Source of the DNA: a virus | Virus record (IMG/VR): IMGVR_UViG_3300042731_007874 | Direction: 5' to 3' (one strand) | DNA length: 64,000 nucleotides | Shown: piece by piece, positions 10,055 through 18,410 of the stretch | How positions within the stretch are numbered: position 1 is the first letter of the stretch | Layout of the letters: each line of letters begins with the position of its first letter | The notes under the pieces: model-generated | What the model saw: the letters and a program-made list of their open reading frames with translations, nothing else | Told to the model about the DNA's origin: nothing | Databases searched by the model: none | Made by a program: the position numbers and the translations under genes

Positions 10055-11824
10055 ATGGCAACAACTCCTAGTATTGTAGATGTCTATCCGTCAAATCAGG
10101 CTAACGGTATTCCTATTGGAGATAGTGTTACAGTTACCTTTGATCAAGAAATGGATGAGTCTTCTATTAATGCCGGGACTTTTGTTGTTAGTGGACCAGA
10201 CACTTCTAATATCTTTGGTCCTGACTTAACACCAATAGAACAAGTAGGAGTAGATGACCAGGATTCTGTATTAAGCTCTCCTTATTTTGGCGGGTTTGTT
10301 GAAGGAATAATAACTTTTGAGAAGACAAACGCTTCTGGAGGTTCTGTTGCTGATTCGGTTTTAGATCAAACAGGAGCAGGAGATCAGTGGTATACAAAAG
10401 CAATCTTCACTCCATCGATACCTTTAAGACCAAATGTAGAATATACTGTTTTGTTGGCAGGAGACGAAGATCCTACAAACGCATTTGATTCTGGAGTAAG
10501 AACAAGAACAGTTTTTGATGCAGTAGAAGTTTCTGTTTCTGGAAGCGGGACGGTTGCTTTTTCCGGAGGGTATACTGGAGCAACAACTAGAACTTATGTT
10601 TTGGAGATTACAGGTGCTGGAGCTACTGGAGTAGCCGAATATCAATGGTGGAGGCAATCAGATCCATTAACCGTTTATGACGGTACTACAACAACCGGTT
10701 ATAGAGAACTAGAAGATGGTTTAGTTGTTTCTTTTGGAGCTGATGGTTCTTTCTCGGTAGGAGATCAGTGGTCTGTTGTTGTTGTTCCGTTTATTGTATT
10801 ACCAAACACATATTCTTGGACGTTCTCAACTGGATCGGGATCTGTCTTAACACCTCCCTCTTCTTCTAGTTCTAGTGGCATAAGTTTAATTGGTTCTGTT
10901 ACCACTGGAGCATTACAAGTTAGTGAGCTTTCTCCTTCTATAGGTCAGTATGGAGTTGAGATTTCAGAAGACCCTTATACTGGAGAATCAATTACAATTA
11001 ATTTTGCAGGAACCAGCCCAATAGACGCAGACACAGTTACTTCTGACACTGTTTCTGTTATTTCGGAACCGGCTCTTGCTAGTCTCGGATTTAATTACAC
11101 GGGAGAGCTAGAAGCAACCGCTACAGTTTCTGGTACTACAATTACAATTACATTAGAACCAGGACAGCTTTACCAAAATAACATTGTCACGGTTGTTCTT
11201 GATAAAGACATTGCAAACGAAGCTGGCCAAACATTAGGAGAAGATTATACTTTTTACTTCTCAACTCCTTATACTCCTTTGTATGCCGGAGACAGAAGAA
11301 TTTATCTTGATCTTGGTTCTGTCTTATCTGATGTCTTAGAAGAAACTATTTATTTGGCCCTGTTAGAAGCAAGTCTCGCCGCAGATAAGATTTCATTCTC
11401 AACTTCTATTTCAAACACTTCTTTCTTTCAACACGCTCGCAGAGAATATGTTCTTTGTTATGCAGAATGGCTACTGGCCGCAGGTCTTACTTCTTCTTCC
11501 GGAGGAGATAAATTATCAAAGAGGCTTGGTAATCTTTCTGTTTCTAGAGGATCTCTTTCAGGTCTGGAAAAACTAAAAGACGACAAAAGAGACTGCATGG
11601 CCTATTGGGAGATTACCGTTAAAACAGGAGGAGAAGTTACTCCGGACGCAAGCTTATTACCGCAGACAACCGTTAAAGGGCTTTTGTCAGAAGACTCAAT
11701 TACTGTAGGAAGACTATGGGAGCCTATGTCAAGAGTAGGCTATACTCCTGCCGCTAATACTCGGAGAGGCAGATATAACTATAGCTCTAGAAGAACTTTT
11801 AGAACTTACAGAAAGAAACACTAA
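10055..11824 (+). CDS. Head-tail adaptor-like protein with N-terminal Ig-like (SbsA/Big_5-type) domains
   Basis: Two Ig-like units (SIVDVYPSNQANGIPIGDSVTVTFDQEMD...; QVSELSPSIGQYGV...YTFYFST); C-terminal helical domain with KLSKRLGNLSVSRG, adaptor-like; position after MCP. Confidence 0.65.
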   Translation: MATTPSIVDVYPSNQANGIPIGDSVTVTFDQEMDESSINAGTFVVSGPDTSNIFGPDLTPIEQVGVDDQDSVLSSPYFGGFVEGIITFEKTNASGGSVADSVLDQTGAGDQWYTKAIFTPSIPLRPNVEYTVLLAGDEDPTNAFDSGVRTRTVFDAVEVSVSGSGTVAFSGGYTGATTRTYVLEITGAGATGVAEYQWWRQSDPLTVYDGTTTTGYRELEDGLVVSFGADGSFSVGDQWSVVVVPFIVLPNTYSWTFSTGSGSVLTPPSSSSSSGISLIGSVTTGALQVSELSPSIGQYGVEISEDPYTGESITINFAGTSPIDADTVTSDTVSVISEPALASLGFNYTGELEATATVSGTTITITLEPGQLYQNNIVTVVLDKDIANEAGQTLGEDYTFYFSTPYTPLYAGDRRIYLDLGSVLSDVLEETIYLALLEASLAADKISFSTSISNTSFFQHARREYVLCYAEWLLAAGLTSSSGGDKLSKRLGNLSVSRGSLSGLEKLKDDKRDCMAYWEITVKTGGEVTPDASLLPQTTVKGLLSEDSITVGRLWEPMSRVGYTPAANTRRGRYNYSSRRTFRTYRKKH

Positions 11825-12384
11825 TGGCAGGACGTTCTCCACATGGTGTTCTTTATTCTCAAGGTACAGAAATAGATCTTCGTGCAGAACTGTATAAAAC
11901 ACTATATGGATCTGTTGATGAGGTACCAAAAGGAAGAATAGGTCTTCTTCGAAAAATGCGCCGTAATTCTTCTGGAGAGCTTCTAAGATGTGTTTGTAGA
12001 AGTAATTTAACTGATGAACCGGATTCTGATACCTATTGCAGATACTGTTTGGGACATGGTTGTTACTGGGACGAATCAAAAATAACTTACTTTAAAGATG
12101 ATGAATCTTTTAGGCGACATGAAGGAGTAACTAAAGAATACGAAGATTCTATTTTTTATGTTGAACACGACGTTCTTGTAACAGATGATGATTATATTAT
12201 TGAAATTAGCGTTAACTCCAATGGAGATGTTATAATTCCTATTGAACGGATTGGTTTCTTTAAGATTTTAAAAGCTGATCCTATGAGAAGTGATAAAGGA
12301 CGTATCGAGTTCTTCCAGATAAGAGCAAAGGAAGAACGAAAATGGAGTGTTTATTATGGTGTCACGAATCGACAATATAACTGA
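11824..12384 (+). CDS. Head closure/stopper-like neck protein with Cys-rich Zn ribbon
   Basis: Position; CVC...CRYCLGHG; beta-barrel-like C-half (PMRSDKGRIEFF). Confidence 0.55.
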   Translation: MAGRSPHGVLYSQGTEIDLRAELYKTLYGSVDEVPKGRIGLLRKMRRNSSGELLRCVCRSNLTDEPDSDTYCRYCLGHGCYWDESKITYFKDDESFRRHEGVTKEYEDSIFYVEHDVLVTDDDYIIEISVNSNGDVIIPIERIGFFKILKADPMRSDKGRIEFFQIRAKEERKWSVYYGVTNRQYN

Positions 12385-13084
12385 TCTACCGACAATTACA
12401 ATTCCCCATCTAGGGGTTTCTTATAATGAGTCGGATCTTTATAAAATGATTCAGGAATATTGGGATACGTTAGCACAGAAAGATAACGCCAATAGGTTTA
12501 ATTCTCCACCATCTGGGTTGACAATCGTTGATTTTTTAGAGTTAGTTAAAAACGCAGTAGAACATAAACAGACATTTGAGTCAATTCCTTCGGACAGAAG
12601 ATTATTGTTCTTGACGGAAGATCCGCCTGAAGAAATCGATACAGAAGGTATTACTTGTGAACTAACTACTCGTAGACCAGGAAGTTTTTCTCGTGGCCCG
12701 GCGGCCCAAGGAAAAATTAAAGAAGTTACTGCTCACATGAGAGCAATGATAGATCATCCAGAAAGTCCTGGTGAAAAGCTTATTACTATGGGCCGGAAAC
12801 ATGATAATTTTATAACTTTTTATACTTATGCCAAAACAAACAGGTCTTCACTTAGACGGGCTCTGTGGTTTGAAGAACTAATGGAATCTTATCGGTGGTA
12901 CTTTAGAATCTTTGGTTTTAATGCCATTCAAGAGGAGATTTCAAAAAAAGAAATCGTTAATATAGGAGAACTCAAATTAAGAAGATATCCTATTAGATAT
13001 ATCGTAATGACAGATGATACTTTCCATGTCACTTCTCAAGAACTACGAGACGTTACATTAAAGGTTACTTTGTCGAATGGTTAA
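12347..13084 (+). CDS. Tail terminator/neck protein
   Basis: Immediately precedes the sheath gene; alternating alpha/beta pattern (DNFITFYTYAKTNRSSLRRALWFEELM). Confidence 0.5.
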   Translation: MFIMVSRIDNITDLPTITIPHLGVSYNESDLYKMIQEYWDTLAQKDNANRFNSPPSGLTIVDFLELVKNAVEHKQTFESIPSDRRLLFLTEDPPEEIDTEGITCELTTRRPGSFSRGPAAQGKIKEVTAHMRAMIDHPESPGEKLITMGRKHDNFITFYTYAKTNRSSLRRALWFEELMESYRWYFRIFGFNAIQEEISKKEIVNIGELKLRRYPIRYIVMTDDTFHVTSQELRDVTLKVTLSNG

Positions 13085-13097
13085 TTAGGAGGCTAAA

Positions 13098-14978
13098 ATG
13101 ACTTTAGTATATTTGCCACGAAAATCTGTATACAAGACAGATGGTAATACTTTGGATGCCGCAACGGTTCAGGCTAAAAGAGTATTGATTATAGGGACCG
13201 CAGGCAAAGGGCTTGCCGATCAAATTGTAATTCCTTCCTCTACTTCTGTTGCCAAGTCAGAGTTTGGTTCAGATGGCTCTCTCTTGAGGGGGATGTGGGA
13301 AGCGAAAGAAGGTGGCGCGGCTCAAGTCGCGTTGTATCGGATTGGAGCAACCGCAGCTAGCTTAACAGGTGTGGGTGACACCACGGGAGCGGCTGGTTAT
13401 ACAATCGCAACTGTCGATAAAGATGCCGATGCTGGAGGAGATTATGCGCTTTATTATGACGACACTACAGACCGCCTTGTTATCCAGAGGAACTCAGATA
13501 GCCAGGTTGTTTGGGACAATAACCCAGGTGACGAAATTGACTTATTTGAGGTTAATGTTAGCGGTGAAAGAGCAGCCGCTGGAGGTGGAGACATTGGCTC
13601 TCCTTCTAGTTTCGTTAACCTAGAAGATGTTACTGCAACAGGGACTACTTTCACAGCAGGAACAGATGGACTAGATCTCAGTAAGATGGAAACGTATGAG
13701 GCTTTGTACGTCGCCTATAAGAACTTACTGGTCGGTGGATTTGATGTTGTTGTTCCGATGGATGTATTTCTTGATGACTATAATATAATTGCCCAAGGGC
13801 ATCGAAAAGGATCAGTACTCCCTGTACTTCCCAGTGCTAATACTTATCCTACTAAAGATGCGTATTCTTTGGGTTCTGATGTTGATTCTTTAGGTTCTGT
13901 TTATGTTGAAGAATACGAGGGAGACTATTACTTCTGGTGGAGAACAACTACTGGGGCTTTTACCGCTGCAGAACTGTATCCAACTGGTGTTGGTTCCGCA
14001 AGCGCAACCTTAAAGATTGATGGAACTGCTCTTACAGCAGACGATTTTCATGAAGTTAACTTTGCCTATCAATTGGCCAGATTCTTGTACGAGGTCTCTA
14101 CTGATGAAGTAGACGCTACTGGAGTTATTGGAGTTCTTCCTCCTGATTCAAATAGCCTGCGAGATAAGGCTTTGTGGCTCGGCAAAGAACCGACTTGGAC
14201 AATCAACAGCACTACTGGAGAATATACAATTACTTCTTCTGGGAATAATGGCTCTGGTTTGCTGGGGAATAAGTTTAAGGTAGGTCGCTCAGATCATCGA
14301 TCTGGTGCTTTTGGTGGCGGTTTTATTCTTACTGATAGTGAGTTTATGGACGGCACAGAAGAGACAGACGAGAATGACTATCCTATCGATCTTGGTAAAT
14401 ACATTTCCGTTGTCGCCGACAATCCGTTTATGCGAAACAACTGGTTGACATCTGGATATATTGGCTCTTTTGCTGCATCGTATGGTGGCTTCTATATTGA
14501 TCGGAAACCCTCTAGCTCTCCGACAAACAAGCCAATTCCTAAATCGATCTCAATCCTTTATGATTTCAAGCCAGGAGATTTAGATAAGCTATCCAAATAT
14601 GGCTACACCATGTTGCGGCGGAAGACTACAGGTACTGTTGTTGCTGATGCCCCTACGGCTGCTCTTCCAAATTCTGACTGGAGACGACTCTCAACAGTTC
14701 GAATTGTTAAGCTTGTTATTGACGGTGTTCGACTTGCAGTAGACAAATATTTAGGAGAAGGGACTTCTTCTTCGACTCGGGCGTCAATGTATACTGACGT
14801 AGAGAAGGTTCTTCAGAAAGCAAAGAAGAGCAAGGATCTTCAAGACTACAAAGAATTTGAGATTAAACAAACGCCTTCCATGGAGGTTTCTGGCGTAGCA
14901 CAGATCCATTTAAGGCTAGTCCCAGCTTTTGAACTGAGAGTAATTGAAGTTACAATCAGCGTTTCAAAGTCTGGTTAA
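13098..14978 (+). CDS. Tail sheath protein (contractile tail)
   Basis: RVLIIGTAGKG N-terminus; C-terminal DWRRLSTVRIVKLVIDGVR...IHLRLVPAFELRVIEVTISV is a sheath signature; SD AGGAGG. Confidence 0.9.
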   Translation: MTLVYLPRKSVYKTDGNTLDAATVQAKRVLIIGTAGKGLADQIVIPSSTSVAKSEFGSDGSLLRGMWEAKEGGAAQVALYRIGATAASLTGVGDTTGAAGYTIATVDKDADAGGDYALYYDDTTDRLVIQRNSDSQVVWDNNPGDEIDLFEVNVSGERAAAGGGDIGSPSSFVNLEDVTATGTTFTAGTDGLDLSKMETYEALYVAYKNLLVGGFDVVVPMDVFLDDYNIIAQGHRKGSVLPVLPSANTYPTKDAYSLGSDVDSLGSVYVEEYEGDYYFWWRTTTGAFTAAELYPTGVGSASATLKIDGTALTADDFHEVNFAYQLARFLYEVSTDEVDATGVIGVLPPDSNSLRDKALWLGKEPTWTINSTTGEYTITSSGNNGSGLLGNKFKVGRSDHRSGAFGGGFILTDSEFMDGTEETDENDYPIDLGKYISVVADNPFMRNNWLTSGYIGSFAASYGGFYIDRKPSSSPTNKPIPKSISILYDFKPGDLDKLSKYGYTMLRRKTTGTVVADAPTAALPNSDWRRLSTVRIVKLVIDGVRLAVDKYLGEGTSSSTRASMYTDVEKVLQKAKKSKDLQDYKEFEIKQTPSMEVSGVAQIHLRLVPAFELRVIEVTISVSKSG

Positions 14979-14993
14979 TAACGGAGGTTAGTA

Positions 14994-15130
14994 ATGGCAG
15001 CACAAATTTCTAGTTTTCAACGTGCTTACAATAGCTTCAGTGGAGTTGATATCACTGCGGTTATTGGCACTAAAACACTTGGTTCGTTACAGGGAATATC
15101 GTACCAAGTAAGTCGCGAAAAAGCTCCGGT
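14994..15130 (+). CDS. Tail tube protein, exon 1 (not in ORF track)
   Basis: SD GGAGGT and ATG 14994; encodes MAAQISSFQRAYNSFSGVDITAVIGTKTLGSLQGISYQVSREKAP plus GT of a Val codon; homologous to N-termini of the two downstream tube paralogs (YSGTDIKV; YTGSQISV). Confidence 0.9.
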
Positions 15131-16074
15131 TAACTAAAAAGGTATGGGCCGGAGAAGAAAAATGTCGCTCAAATCGGAGAACTCGAAAGACAACTCCGAG
15201 GGTAAGTCTGATAGCGATATCAGAATCCCGTAGAGACTTTAAAGGATTTCTCAAGTGAGTAGATTAGTAATTAGAGATAGACATGGAAGATATATTGGAA
15301 CCGAGCAAGTCTATACAGACGAAGATTTGATTGGTTCAGTAGAGATTGCTTCAAAGATTTTAGGAAAGACCCCGACTTTCCATCAAATGAAAACTTTGTC
15401 AAGATCTCAGAATCTTCCACACCCTAAAACAATCCAAGAGAGATTTGGATCTTGGGAGAACGCTATCTCGATTGCTGGGTTAAGTTCAAACAAATATTAC
15501 GAGAAAGATTTTCTAGTAAAAGAGATAGAACGCTTTATTGCAGAACATAAGCATATTCCAAGTACTAATGAATTTAGGTTTTCTGAAGGCTATCCTGGAG
15601 TCAAAGCTTATAAGCGTCTATTCGGGTCTTTTAATAACGCACTTGTAGAGTTAGGTTATACTCCTGTTTGCGTTGCTAAGAAAAACAAATATTCTTGTAA
15701 TGTGGTTGCGGACGATGGTCATATTTGTGACAGTACAGAAGAAGGGTTAGTAGATAACTTCTTATTTAAGAAAAACATTTGTCACAGTATTCAACCGCTT
15801 TATCCAAGACATGAAAAACTTAACCCTAATGGTTATATTAGAGCTGATTTTTATTTAACAAAAACAAATACTTTTGTTGAATATGCTGGCTTAATTAACC
15901 GAAAATTTTACGCAGAAAAGTTAGAAGCTAAAAAACAGCTTGCTACTGTTTTAGATATCAACTTATTAGTTGTGTATCCTTCTGAACTTGGACAACTTGA
16001 GAAAGTCTTTAAGACGTACTTAGGTACGTAACACGCGACACCTCCGTAGCTGGAGGATGGAATAGTCCAATTTG
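15131..16074 (+). mobile_element. Group I self-splicing intron (IA2-like: P7.1 and P7.2) in the tail tube gene, 944 nt
   Basis: P1 CTCCGGT/GCCGGAG with U.G at the 5' splice site; P10 CTATACT/GGTATGG; P3 TGTCGC(15163)/GCGACA(16035); P4 TCGGAG/CTCCGA; P6/P6a hairpin with GCGA loop; P7 GACT(15235)/AGTC; P8 CCTCC/GGAGG; terminal G 16074; splicing restores REKAPVYTLGSADPR. Confidence 0.92.
15255..16031 (+). CDS. Intron-encoded putative homing endonuclease (two homing-endonuclease-associated repeats + PD-(D/E)XK/Vsr-like nuclease domain)
   Basis: GTG start, SD AAAGGA; repeats PHPKTIQERFGSWENAISIAGL and YPGVKAYKRLFGSFNNALVELGY; C-terminal DSTEE...RADF...FVEYAG; lies within the intron. Confidence 0.8.
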   Translation: MSRLVIRDRHGRYIGTEQVYTDEDLIGSVEIASKILGKTPTFHQMKTLSRSQNLPHPKTIQERFGSWENAISIAGLSSNKYYEKDFLVKEIERFIAEHKHIPSTNEFRFSEGYPGVKAYKRLFGSFNNALVELGYTPVCVAKKNKYSCNVVADDGHICDSTEEGLVDNFLFKKNICHSIQPLYPRHEKLNPNGYIRADFYLTKTNTFVEYAGLINRKFYAEKLEAKKQLATVLDINLLVVYPSELGQLEKVFKTYLGT

Positions 16075-16615
16075 CTATACTCTTGGATCTGCAGACCCCC
16101 GTGCAATTGCGCGTGGTAAGAGAGCTATTGCTGGGTCGTTAGTTTTTATTCAGTTCGATTCAGAACCAGTTATGTTTGAGTTAGCGAACATAACTGACGT
16201 TACTCGGCAGCTTTATTTCCTGAGTGATATTGATGACCTTCGTCCTGAGTATAATGCCGCTAATCAGATTCCAGTAGCTGGGACAACGGTTACTCCTGTA
16301 GGAGAGACCTCTCCTAATTTCCCAGGAGCTTCTATCGATCAGGCAGAATCAGATATTACTGCAGCTGGTTCTGATCAAATCCGGGCAGTCCCTTGGTATC
16401 CGGATCAGATTCCTGCATTCGACATTGTTCTTTCGGCGGCTAACGAGTATGGCGCTCTAGCTATTATGAAGATTCTTGGTGTCGAGCTGATGAACTCTGG
16501 CTATGGGGTTTCAATTGATGACATGGTTTGTGAGCATAGTTATACCTATATCGCTCATGGCCTTATTCCTTGGACCGCACAAGGCATCCACTCAAGTATG
16601 TTGAATAACGTCTAA
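16075..16615 (+). CDS. Tail tube protein, exon 2 (spliced product 225 aa)
   Basis: In frame with the track ORF 16172-16615; YTLGSADPRAIARGKRAIAGSLVF aligns without gaps to paralog DRCFGSVYPKSYVRGQRTIGGSMVF; shares PAFDIVLSAANEYG with paralog PPLDISIVFANEYG. Confidence 0.9.
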
Positions 16616-16638: not shown

Positions 16639-17508
16639 ATGGCTGAGCAAAACATAGATTCTAGTGGTCGGTTAGTAGATCCTACTCTCTTGACCGCCTC
16701 TGATTATTTGGGTTATGGAACCTATAGTGGAACTGATATTAAAGTTACCGTTCATTATCCAGGCACAGAGAAAGCCAGAATAGAACTTAATTATGACAGA
16801 GAGACTACAGAACAAGAACTAAAAGACGAAGAAGCTTATTTGAATAAGCGCAGAGCTGCTGGCGCAGACCCAAGTGAGCTTCAAGAAATACAGAATAGTA
16901 TTGCTGCGATAGAGAGTAATCTTCAGTCTTTAGACGACCAAGATAAAAAGATTAGAGACCTTCCAACTTCCAAACAACTAGCTGAGCTACAAACTTTAAG
17001 TTGGTCTATCTATAGAGGTAAATCGCCAGACAGGTGTTTTGGATCTGTTTATCCAAAAAGCTATGTTCGTGGACAACGCACAATAGGCGGTTCTATGGTA
17101 TTTACCTTATTCTACAAGCATGTCTTGCACGAGATCTTGTCTTTAAACTTAGGTTTATATAGTACTGGGACTAGTGATGCTGATTCTTATGTTGAAACAA
17201 CTAATTTAATCGACCAATTACCTCCGTTAGATATTAGTATTGTTTTTGCAAATGAATATGGAGCATTGTCTCATATGGGGCTTTGGGGAGTAGAGTTTAT
17301 ACAAGAGGGAGGGACTCTGTCAATTGAAGACATATTTTCAGAATCTGTAGTCCAATATGTTGCTAGAGATCTTGATCCTATTAGAGAAGTTGCGAAAAGA
17401 GAACTTAATAGCCAAGGGGTTACCTCTCATTGGCAGACTACCGCCTCCGACTTGCTGAATAACGACAGTCTTAAAAATCACTTAAAGAGAAGGAATCCTT
17501 ATATTTAA
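16639..17508 (+). CDS. Tail tube-like paralog (tube initiator candidate) with coiled-coil insertion
   Basis: Clear sequence similarity to the spliced tube protein; about 70-aa charged helical insert after the first strand. Confidence 0.75.
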   Translation: MAEQNIDSSGRLVDPTLLTASDYLGYGTYSGTDIKVTVHYPGTEKARIELNYDRETTEQELKDEEAYLNKRRAAGADPSELQEIQNSIAAIESNLQSLDDQDKKIRDLPTSKQLAELQTLSWSIYRGKSPDRCFGSVYPKSYVRGQRTIGGSMVFTLFYKHVLHEILSLNLGLYSTGTSDADSYVETTNLIDQLPPLDISIVFANEYGALSHMGLWGVEFIQEGGTLSIEDIFSESVVQYVARDLDPIREVAKRELNSQGVTSHWQTTASDLLNNDSLKNHLKRRNPYI

Positions 17509-18410
17509 TGACGATTAGAGATCCATATGGCGAGGTTTTAGGAACAAATAATGCTGGAACTACGGTATATGAATACGACAAATATACCGGGTCTCAAATA
17601 TCTGTTCTTATTGGGGATGTTGTTATTGACGACGCTGTTGGATTGAGCTTTGTCAAACAACAGTCAAAAACTCCTATTTACGGATTTGCGTCTCAATATT
17701 TTTCTTTTGTTGCTGACGGACATGTACTTGTCCAGGGTTCTCTATATATCTCTTTTAAAGAAGCCGGATATCTGTTTTATCCGATCCAAAGGTTCTTGAA
17801 TAGAACTGCCAATTTATATGCCGAAAATAGCGAAACCGATTGGCAAAATACAGCACAGACTGCTACTTCTCCTAGATATTCTGTTAATGACGACGGAGAG
17901 ATAGTAAATTACTACAAGCCTCAAGACTATACTTTTACCGAAGCTGCTGCTGCTGCAGAAACAAAGAGAGTAATGCAAGCAAATGTAGAGCAAATGTATA
18001 ACTGGCAAAGTAGGGATGGGACTCCGAGACAGCAGTCCAAATACAACCAAGCTTGGAGAGAGCTTGCTGCGTTACCTGATGATAAGTTTGAGGATTGGGC
18101 CGAAGTCTTTGAAGATACTATTTGGTTTGGTTCTGATAAATCAAATCCATTTGTTAGAGATAAGCTCTTTAGTAAAAACATTCCTCCAGGGACGATGATT
18201 AACGACGAAGACGTATTAAGCCATCGAGGAGCAGATCAATATCCTGCTGTAGATATTTTTATTACTTATGGAGATATGAGTAGAAAACCCGCCAACCATA
18301 CAGTAAAAAAACTTTTAGATGTCCATTTTATTGGACAAGCCCAAACATTAGAAGTTTCAGACCAACCAGTGTTAGAAAAGTACGATTTCCTTGCAAGAAC
18401 TCTAGTTTAG
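17508..18410 (+). CDS. Second tail tube-like paralog with internal insertion
   Basis: KTPIYGFASQ...VQGSLYI, PAVDIFITYG and VLEKYDFLART match the tube-family pattern. Confidence 0.7.
   Translation: MTIRDPYGEVLGTNNAGTTVYEYDKYTGSQISVLIGDVVIDDAVGLSFVKQQSKTPIYGFASQYFSFVADGHVLVQGSLYISFKEAGYLFYPIQRFLNRTANLYAENSETDWQNTAQTATSPRYSVNDDGEIVNYYKPQDYTFTEAAAAAETKRVMQANVEQMYNWQSRDGTPRQQSKYNQAWRELAALPDDKFEDWAEVFEDTIWFGSDKSNPFVRDKLFSKNIPPGTMINDEDVLSHRGADQYPAVDIFITYGDMSRKPANHTVKKLLDVHFIGQAQTLEVSDQPVLEKYDFLARTLV

Follow-up and report, generated by a model that had tools for sequence, protein, structure and literature searches.

The window analysed here, a single stretch of 64,000 nucleotides from an uncultured jumbo phage, holds a tail tube gene that was predicted to be interrupted by a group I intron devoid of P2, P9 and most of P5. 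According to the textbooks P9 belongs to the obligatory group I core, and the locus raises the question of whether such an insert is a working intron and, if it is, by what means the ribozyme would hold its fold and find its 3' splice site.

Three open reading frames cover the region: one of 47 codons (14994–15137) just 3' of the tail sheath gene, one of 258 codons (15255–16031), and a frame that stays open to 16615. The first 45 and the last 179 residues encoded on either side of the insert match adjoining stretches of the PHROG 9206 profile (positions 16–55 and 57–166, respectively), and one residue is therefore absent at the join. A protein search with exon 2 returned P0001, a protein of 225 aa which shows 100% identity across exon 2 and has the sequence ...SREKSPVYTLGSADPR, and residues 1–45 of exon 1 match residues 1–45 of P0001/L074. 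The contig L074 carries an uninterrupted tube gene of 678 nt, with 35 mismatches (95% identity) to the joined exons of the window. Since this gene consists of exactly 137 + 541 nt, the insert comprises exactly 944 nt, with the exons joined as CCGGT/CTATAC. The intron-less allele reads straight across this point, in agreement with the junction CCGGT/CTATACT given in the original prediction. The interrupted gene is thus divided as follows:

14994–15130, + strand: first exon of the tail tube gene (45 codons and 2 further nt); matched by PHROG 9206 positions 16–55 and by P0001/L074
15131–16074, + strand: group I intron; exact insert relative to L074, with the core helices
16075–16615, + strand: exon 2 of the tail tube gene; matched by PHROG 9206 positions 57–166; its first 7 nt, CUAUACU, form P10

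The joined frame reads ...EKAPV/YTLGSADPR and encodes a tube protein of 225 aa, from which APVYTLGSADPR is predicted as the junction-spanning peptide. The insertion point is codon Val46, in an invariant stretch of the protein (R41-E42-K43-x-P45). Six of the 35 mismatches between the window and L074 fall within 15 nt of the junction (window positions 15116–15134 and 16078), one of them changing Ala44 to Ser; such a cluster at the insertion site is the pattern that would be expected of endonuclease-site divergence or co-conversion.

The identity of the host gene as a myovirus tail tube gene, also part of the original prediction, is borne out by homology to a virion tube protein and by its position directly after the sheath gene. 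Exon 2 matches gp140 of Bacillus phage 0305phi8-36, a distant relative of the phage in the window, with 32% identity (E 2e-12). The gp140 record is annotated as 'tail tube; virion protein by mass spectrometry', and the gene adjoins that of the sheath and then a tube paralog; the order sheath, tube, tube paralog is the same in the window, where two tube paralogs lie downstream (16639–17508 and 17508–18410). An AlphaFold model of the tube protein reached a pLDDT of 62, too low for the fold to be confirmed, and gave weak Foldseek matches (E>0.4), the top ones being mostly tail tube and Hcp-like proteins. The third tube paralog of the window (17508–18410) is a 300-aa protein without an intein, and in relatives the third paralog measures 789–807 aa and includes a LAGLIDADG intein (PF14890, PF14528; L001 5025–7394, L002 5013–7436). 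Twort orf142, which had been put forward as a precedent for introns in late genes, is itself an intron-bearing tube gene (PMC11878797), and an intron has likewise been described in the tail tube gene of a Bacillus prophage (PMC2504315).

Apart from P9, the insert has a complete group I core (P1, P10, P3–P8, a bulged-A P7 and a terminal G), to which a P7.1/P7.2 insert is added. Its parts, in 5' to 3' order of their first strand, are:

15124–15130 with 15148–15154, + strand: P1, exon CUCCGGU paired with GCCGGAG, with the wobble U15130·G15148 at the splice site
15141–15154, + strand: internal guide, GGUAUGG (15141–15147) for P10 and GCCGGAG (15148–15154) for P1
15141–15147 with 16075–16081, + strand: P10, 7 bp between GGUAUGG and exon 2 CUAUACU, directly 5' of the P1 guide
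15155–15162, + strand: J1/3, AAGAAAAA, 8 nt, the whole P1–P3 interval
15163–15168 with 16035–16040, + strand: P3, UGUCGC with GCGACA, present in the MFE fold and backed by covariation
between P3 and P4, + strand: J3/4, UCAAA
15174–15179 with 15194–15199, + strand: P4, followed by J4/5 AAC; J5/4 is CAA
15183–15184 with 15189–15190, + strand: P5, UC/GA, 2 bp with a GAAA loop L5
15200–15229, + strand: P6 (GGG/CCC) and P6a (15207–15213 with 15218–15224, 7 bp), with a GCGA tetraloop L6a
15233–15238 with 16064–16068, + strand: P7, G-A(bulge)-GACU with AGUCC, assigned by position and likeness
15239–15255 with 15996–16012, + strand: P7.1, 16–17 bp, closing the ORF loop
15255–16031, + strand: encodes a 258-aa homing endonuclease, with a pair of PF18780 repeats at the N-terminus and, at the C-terminus, a PD-(D/E)XK nuclease of the Vsr / I-Bth0305I-like kind
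16014–16029, + strand: P7.2, hairpin ACGUAC-UUAG-GUACGU, then AACAC
16041–16056, + strand: P8, CCUCC-GUAGCU-GGAGG, 5 pairs, all covarying
16057–16063, + strand: J8/7, AUGGAAU, conserved
16069–16074, + strand: 3' tail, AAUUU plus the terminal G16074

The predicted absence of P2 follows from the interval of just 8 nt between P1 and P3, and P5 is indeed reduced to some 2 bp and a GAAA loop (UC-GAAA-GA, 15183–15190). Between P7' and the terminal G only AAUUU is found, which leaves no room for P9 or P9.0; the claim that P9 is missing was thus upheld, but P7' ends at 16068, one base beyond the 16067 first given. Without the ORF loop the ribozyme measures 125 + 79 = 204 nt, the size that had been foreseen. 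The description 'stripped-down' is accurate for P2, P9 and most of P5, but the peripheral P7.1/P7.2 domain is present and makes the ribozyme less stripped than the term suggests. The MFE fold of the ORF-deleted core (−78.8 kcal/mol) recovered every nested helix, the long-range P3 included; P7 is missing from it because this helix forms the usual pseudoknot with P3. Within P7, the guanosine-binding pair is presumably G15235–C16067. A pair of helices in the interval from P7 to P3' is the hallmark of subgroup IA, and P7.1 and P7.2, which the original description left unnamed, both lie there and are kept through sequence changes, which places the intron in this subgroup; the finer placement in IA3 we infer solely from the likeness of the core to the 23S rRNA introns described below.

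The ORF in the P7.1 loop has the two-part build of the EDxHD family, in which N-terminal DNA-binding repeats are joined to a C-terminal Vsr-like nuclease (PMC3239194). The two N-terminal PF18780 repeats were detected with Pfam (E 1.8e-24), and in the predicted structure (pLDDT 85, with the C-terminal domain well modelled) the catalytic domain shows the Vsr-like fold of the EDxHD endonucleases. [quoted passage not shown] Sequence and profile searches of the endonuclease against the PDB, 3R3P included, gave no significant match. The invariant residues, candidates for the composite E-D-x-H-D catalytic set, are D154, H156, D159, E163, D167, H177, D198 and E209. The proposal that the ORF is looped out of the ribozyme is right for most of its length, but its start codon and last 12 codons lie inside P7.1/P7.2: the Shine-Dalgarno sequence AAGGA (15242–15246) and the G of the GTG start are part of the P7.1 5' strand, and the last 12 codons (15996–16031) run through the P7.1 3' strand and P7.2, giving 36 nt of dual use. 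With start signals and final codons placed in these helices, folding of the ribozyme and translation of the endonuclease would be likely to compete.

A collection of homologs, one of the checks proposed at the outset, recovered ten further introns at the same tube-gene codon in metagenomes, nine of them with the same design (no P2, no P9, short P5). The scan for the P6-J6/7-P7 string returned 3 viral and 62 metagenome loci. The intron and endonuclease of the window recur at the same codon in L001, L002/L003 and L007, and the string scan added L062, L029 and L008/L009 (=L116) as further introns of the window type. L012, L058 and L066/L068 share the core and the codon and have a LAGLIDADG-like ORF, closed by P7.2, next to a small P7.1 hairpin. 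J1/3 is A-rich and 4–8 nt long in all 11 family members, and ten members have a short P5, whose stem of 2–4 bp carries an unconserved loop. Where the contig extends to the 3' end of the intron, which is the case for nine members, 5–7 nt and a G follow AGUCC; as the L029 contig ends before the intron does, the short tail is seen in eight relatives plus the window, and the terminal G is present in 9/9 minimal members. L6a is a GNRA loop in 9/11 members. Despite changes in sequence, P7.1 and P7.2 persist in 6 EDxHD-type and 4 LAGLIDADG-type members, the six EDxHD-type members retaining P7.1 as a duplex of 16–17 bp. In L012, L066 and L025, three of the four introns of the LAGLIDADG type, a GAAA tetraloop forms the end of the small P7.1 hairpin, which suggests a tertiary contact; in introns of the window type the ORF takes the place of this loop. 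The same core thus holds unrelated endonucleases in different loops (EDxHD-type in L7.1, LAGLIDADG-type in L7.2), from which it follows that the trimmed ribozyme is older than any single protein and does not depend on it. No ORF-less member was found among the introns at this codon.

Among the 80 best IMG/VR tube loci only one has the intron, a rarity that would be expected of a mobile element. Public gene calls of 174–179 aa that start with MGSADPR, found on several contigs, are exon-2 fragments of interrupted tube genes. No further intron of the same type was found elsewhere in the window, and a blastn comparison of 50,697 phage records with the locus and with its 5' core gave no meaningful match.

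Comparison of the family members provides a test of the proposed helices against chance. Across 11 homologous 5' domains, 93.0% of cells pair, compared with 82.2% in shuffled controls, and the covariation score of 0.284 (0.087 shuffled) was reached by none of 500 shuffles; when the partner strands were slid, 35–54% of cells paired. Compensatory changes affect 2 positions in P1, 2 in P10, 4 in P3, 1 in P4, 2 in P5, 3 in P6a and 5 in P8, those between exon and guide in P1 and P10 being counted across 9–11 introns. P1 is paired in 98.5% of cells and has the U·G wobble at the splice site in 10/10 scorable sequences, and P10, of 6–8 bp, is canonical in 53/54 cells and covaries with the first 6 nt after G16074. 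In P3, 4/6 pairs show compensatory changes (59/60 cells canonical), and both pairs of P5 covary, with 100% pairing in 11 sequences. P7, G-A-GACU/AGUCC, shows no variation among the members or the 23S rRNA relatives and hence draws no support from covariation; the order P3, P4, P5, P6, P8 is canonical, with the P3/P7 pseudoknot. The covariation of P1 and P10 between the guide and a coding exon implies selection for splicing. In combination, the ten relatives and the covariation confirm the original assignment to group I and identify the missing P2 and P9 as a family trait, not a one-off defect.

The nearest relatives found by common core motifs are bacterial 23S rRNA introns at position 2593 (L2593). 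Other loci with the same core string mostly look, by their flanks, like 23S rRNA introns inserted after GGGUUCAGAACGU, which by our own count we take to be position 2593 of the E. coli 23S rRNA, and all six loci with the P6-P7 string that were checked against Rfam lie in 23S rRNA genes, which the intron interrupts after GAACGU. Like the window intron, L2593 introns (found in bacteria and chloroplasts, among them those of Synechococcus C9 and Thermosynechococcus elongatus; PMC1995217) have P7.1/P7.2 between P7 and P3', and they are near-identical to it in J3/4-P4 (AAAUCGG(A/U)GAA), P4'-P6 (CCGAGGGUAAG), P6'-J6/7-P7 (AUCCCGUAGAGACU) and J8/7-P7' (GA(A/U)G.AUAGUCC). Unlike the window intron, which is in a protein gene, they interrupt rRNA and possess P2 and a P5-P5a of greater length, and their AGUCC is followed by a P9 hairpin; published members are described with a short P5, a short P2 and a P7.1/P7.2 insert of roughly 65 nt (PMC1995217). 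Judged by this motif search rather than by a phylogeny, the window intron would belong to an L2593-like IA lineage that lost P2, P9/P9.0 and nearly all of P5.

In the search with a group I covariance model, one of the checks proposed at the outset, Rfam RF00028 gave no match over the whole window at gathering, nor over 14900–16300 at E<=10; it also misses 4/6 of the ORF-less relatives. It reaches the gathering threshold of 50 in two of the six ORF-less 23S relatives (54.9 and 50.1 bits) and stays below it for the other four, which are ORF-less L2593-type introns with full P2 and P9 (L013, L021, L028 and L043). Because most L2593 relatives are missed as well, the silence of RF00028 on the window says little, and the ORF loop of 740 nt likewise hinders matching.

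Of the three losses, only that of P9/P9.0 is unusual: P2-less introns are common in IC2, IA1 and IB4, and a short P5 is normal for the lineage (PMC1995217). P9 is ranked with the mandatory helices in the literature, and for one algal intron its lack was described as very unusual and as a sign of accessory factors (PMC3873408); this trans-spliced algal mitochondrial intron was the one natural P9-less case that the literature search yielded, and it yielded none in phages. No conserved pairing partner of the 3' tail that could substitute for P9.0 was found in the family. Deletion of P9.0 or P10 singly was tolerated and deletion of both together was not (PMC11417360), which makes the long covarying P10 a sensible substitute in the window intron. 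Furthermore, the G-binding pocket of the Twort ribozyme is surrounded by P7.1/P7.2, which stabilise it (PMC1995217).

A P9-bearing sister is found at the same codon. In intron B of L025 (=L072) there is a P5-P5a extension, and AGUCC is followed by CUGUCA-GAAA-UGGCAG, a P9 hairpin; P2 is still missing. The original suggestion that L9 and its partner in P5 were lost together fits this intron, in which the P9 GAAA loop and P5-P5a are both kept, but the comparison is a single one and its 3' end is odd: a splice behind the closest G gives a frameshift, and for the frame of the family (PVYTFGSADPR) the last intron base would have to be A or U. The tube gene of L025 (reverse strand; oriented 11589–13005; identical 3' end in L072) holds two group I introns 5 nt apart, of which intron A, 254 nt long and with P9 and no P2, is inserted in the exon strand of the P1 of intron B. 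The full 7-bp P1 of intron B (CUCCGGU/GCCGGAG) exists only after removal of intron A, implying ordered splicing. At a separate locus (L010 7800–12200; the same in L011 and L065), a row of four homing-endonuclease ORFs, of which three encode LAGLIDADG proteins and one a protein with PF18780 repeats, alternates with group I core strings; repeated ATAGTCC-AA..G ends there have tails of just 5–6 nt. No Rfam match was obtained over L010 7800–12200, which may represent a further locus crowded with introns, P9-less ones among them.

Considered together, these observations make it probable that the insert works as a mobile group I intron, belongs to the subgroup-IA type and represents a trimmed, natural minimal form. 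The trimmed form is most likely working and not broken, at least eight related phages keeping the same design, and from the sequence comparisons we infer that splicing takes place in vivo. In the mechanism that we propose, P1 (exon CUCCGGU and guide GCCGGAG, with the U·G wobble) would present the 5' splice site, and a guanosine bound in the bulged-A P7 would attack after U15130. The 7-bp P10, adjoining P1 on the guide, would then align the 3' exon, while the terminal G16074, tethered to P7' by five nucleotides, would enter the G site and the exons would be joined as CCGGU/CUAUAC to give the 225-aa tube protein. The long P10 would take over the choice of the 3' splice site, and P7.1/P7.2, perhaps also the P6a GNRA loop, would provide the remaining peripheral stabilisation. 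The I-Bth0305I-like endonuclease is expected to drive homing into intron-less alleles. Whether all this proceeds as unaided self-splicing without P2, P9 and P9.0, the 3' site being set only by the long P10 and the 5-nt tether of the G, is a separate matter on which we judge the chances to be even. If it does, a helix regarded as mandatory is dispensable in vivo, and L025-B, with its P9 and P5a, and the fully equipped 23S L2593 relatives form a natural reduction series.

The main alternative accepts a genuine intron and makes its folding or 3'-site choice dependent on a protein, either the endonuclease acting as a maturase or an RNA chaperone of host or phage. Fungal mitochondrial introns without peripheral domains depend on CYT-18 or LAGLIDADG maturases, and in the present family P2, P9/P9.0 and most of P5 are absent and an ORF is present in every member found; the loss of P9 has, moreover, been read as a sign of accessory factors (PMC3873408). 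Conversely, the occurrence of the same core with two unrelated proteins in different loops makes a specific, co-evolved maturase unlikely, and a strong P10, P7.1/P7.2 and a GNRA L6a are still there. EDxHD endonucleases are not known to act as maturases, which also counts against this reading, and overall we regard it as unlikely.

Far less probable is a real 3' splice site elsewhere, or equivalents of P2 and P9 built from ORF or exon sequence. The tail AAUUU can pair with GGAUU in P7.1 in three members, but this pairing is absent in members with other tails. L074 fixes both boundaries to the nucleotide, P10 covaries with the very exon nucleotides that follow G16074, and the ORFs differ completely between the sub-families, so that ORF sequence is unable to supply conserved substitutes for P2 or P9. 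That the insert is a decaying, non-splicing intron in a tube pseudogene, with a downstream paralog (16639–17508 or 17508–18410) supplying the tube, is scarcely credible: such paralogs do exist, but both exons are intact and 95% identical to the uninterrupted allele, the endonuclease ORF is intact, and the core is conserved with compensatory changes among phages whose tube proteins are 70–77% identical.

If the functional, trimmed intron favoured here is the correct reading, a phage intron family in an essential and abundant structural gene manages without P9 and P2, arms that same-site and rRNA relatives keep. The family would then offer a comparative set for the study of 3' splice-site choice and core stability with a minimal periphery, in which P10 alone sets the site or P7.1/P7.2 are the only clamp, as well as, for ribozyme engineering, a natural scaffold with a compact size of about 204 nt. 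As the standard Rfam model misses the class, such phage introns are probably under-annotated and the split genes miscalled; L2593-type introns are likely to be under-annotated as well.

The 204-nt core is no smaller than known natural introns. The Azoarcus tRNA-Ile intron, ~205 nt long, and the engineered T4 sunY mini-ribozymes, which are laboratory deletions, have a catalytic core of about 200 nt like that of the window intron; unlike the latter, the Azoarcus intron retains P2 and P9, including their tetraloop contacts, and lacks P7.1/P7.2. The tail-tube-gene introns of the Twort type resemble the window intron in being group IA introns with P7.1/P7.2 in a late structural gene that depends on splicing, but there is no detectable sequence relation between them, and the Twort ribozyme retains P2 and P9/P9.0 in its crystal structure (PDB 1Y0Q). 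Finally, the endonuclease of the window and I-Bth0305I, the enzyme from the recA intron (group I) of Bacillus phage 0305phi8-36, share their two-part build but are encoded in different genes, in different introns and in different loops, P5 in the recA intron and P7.1 in the window (PMC3239194).
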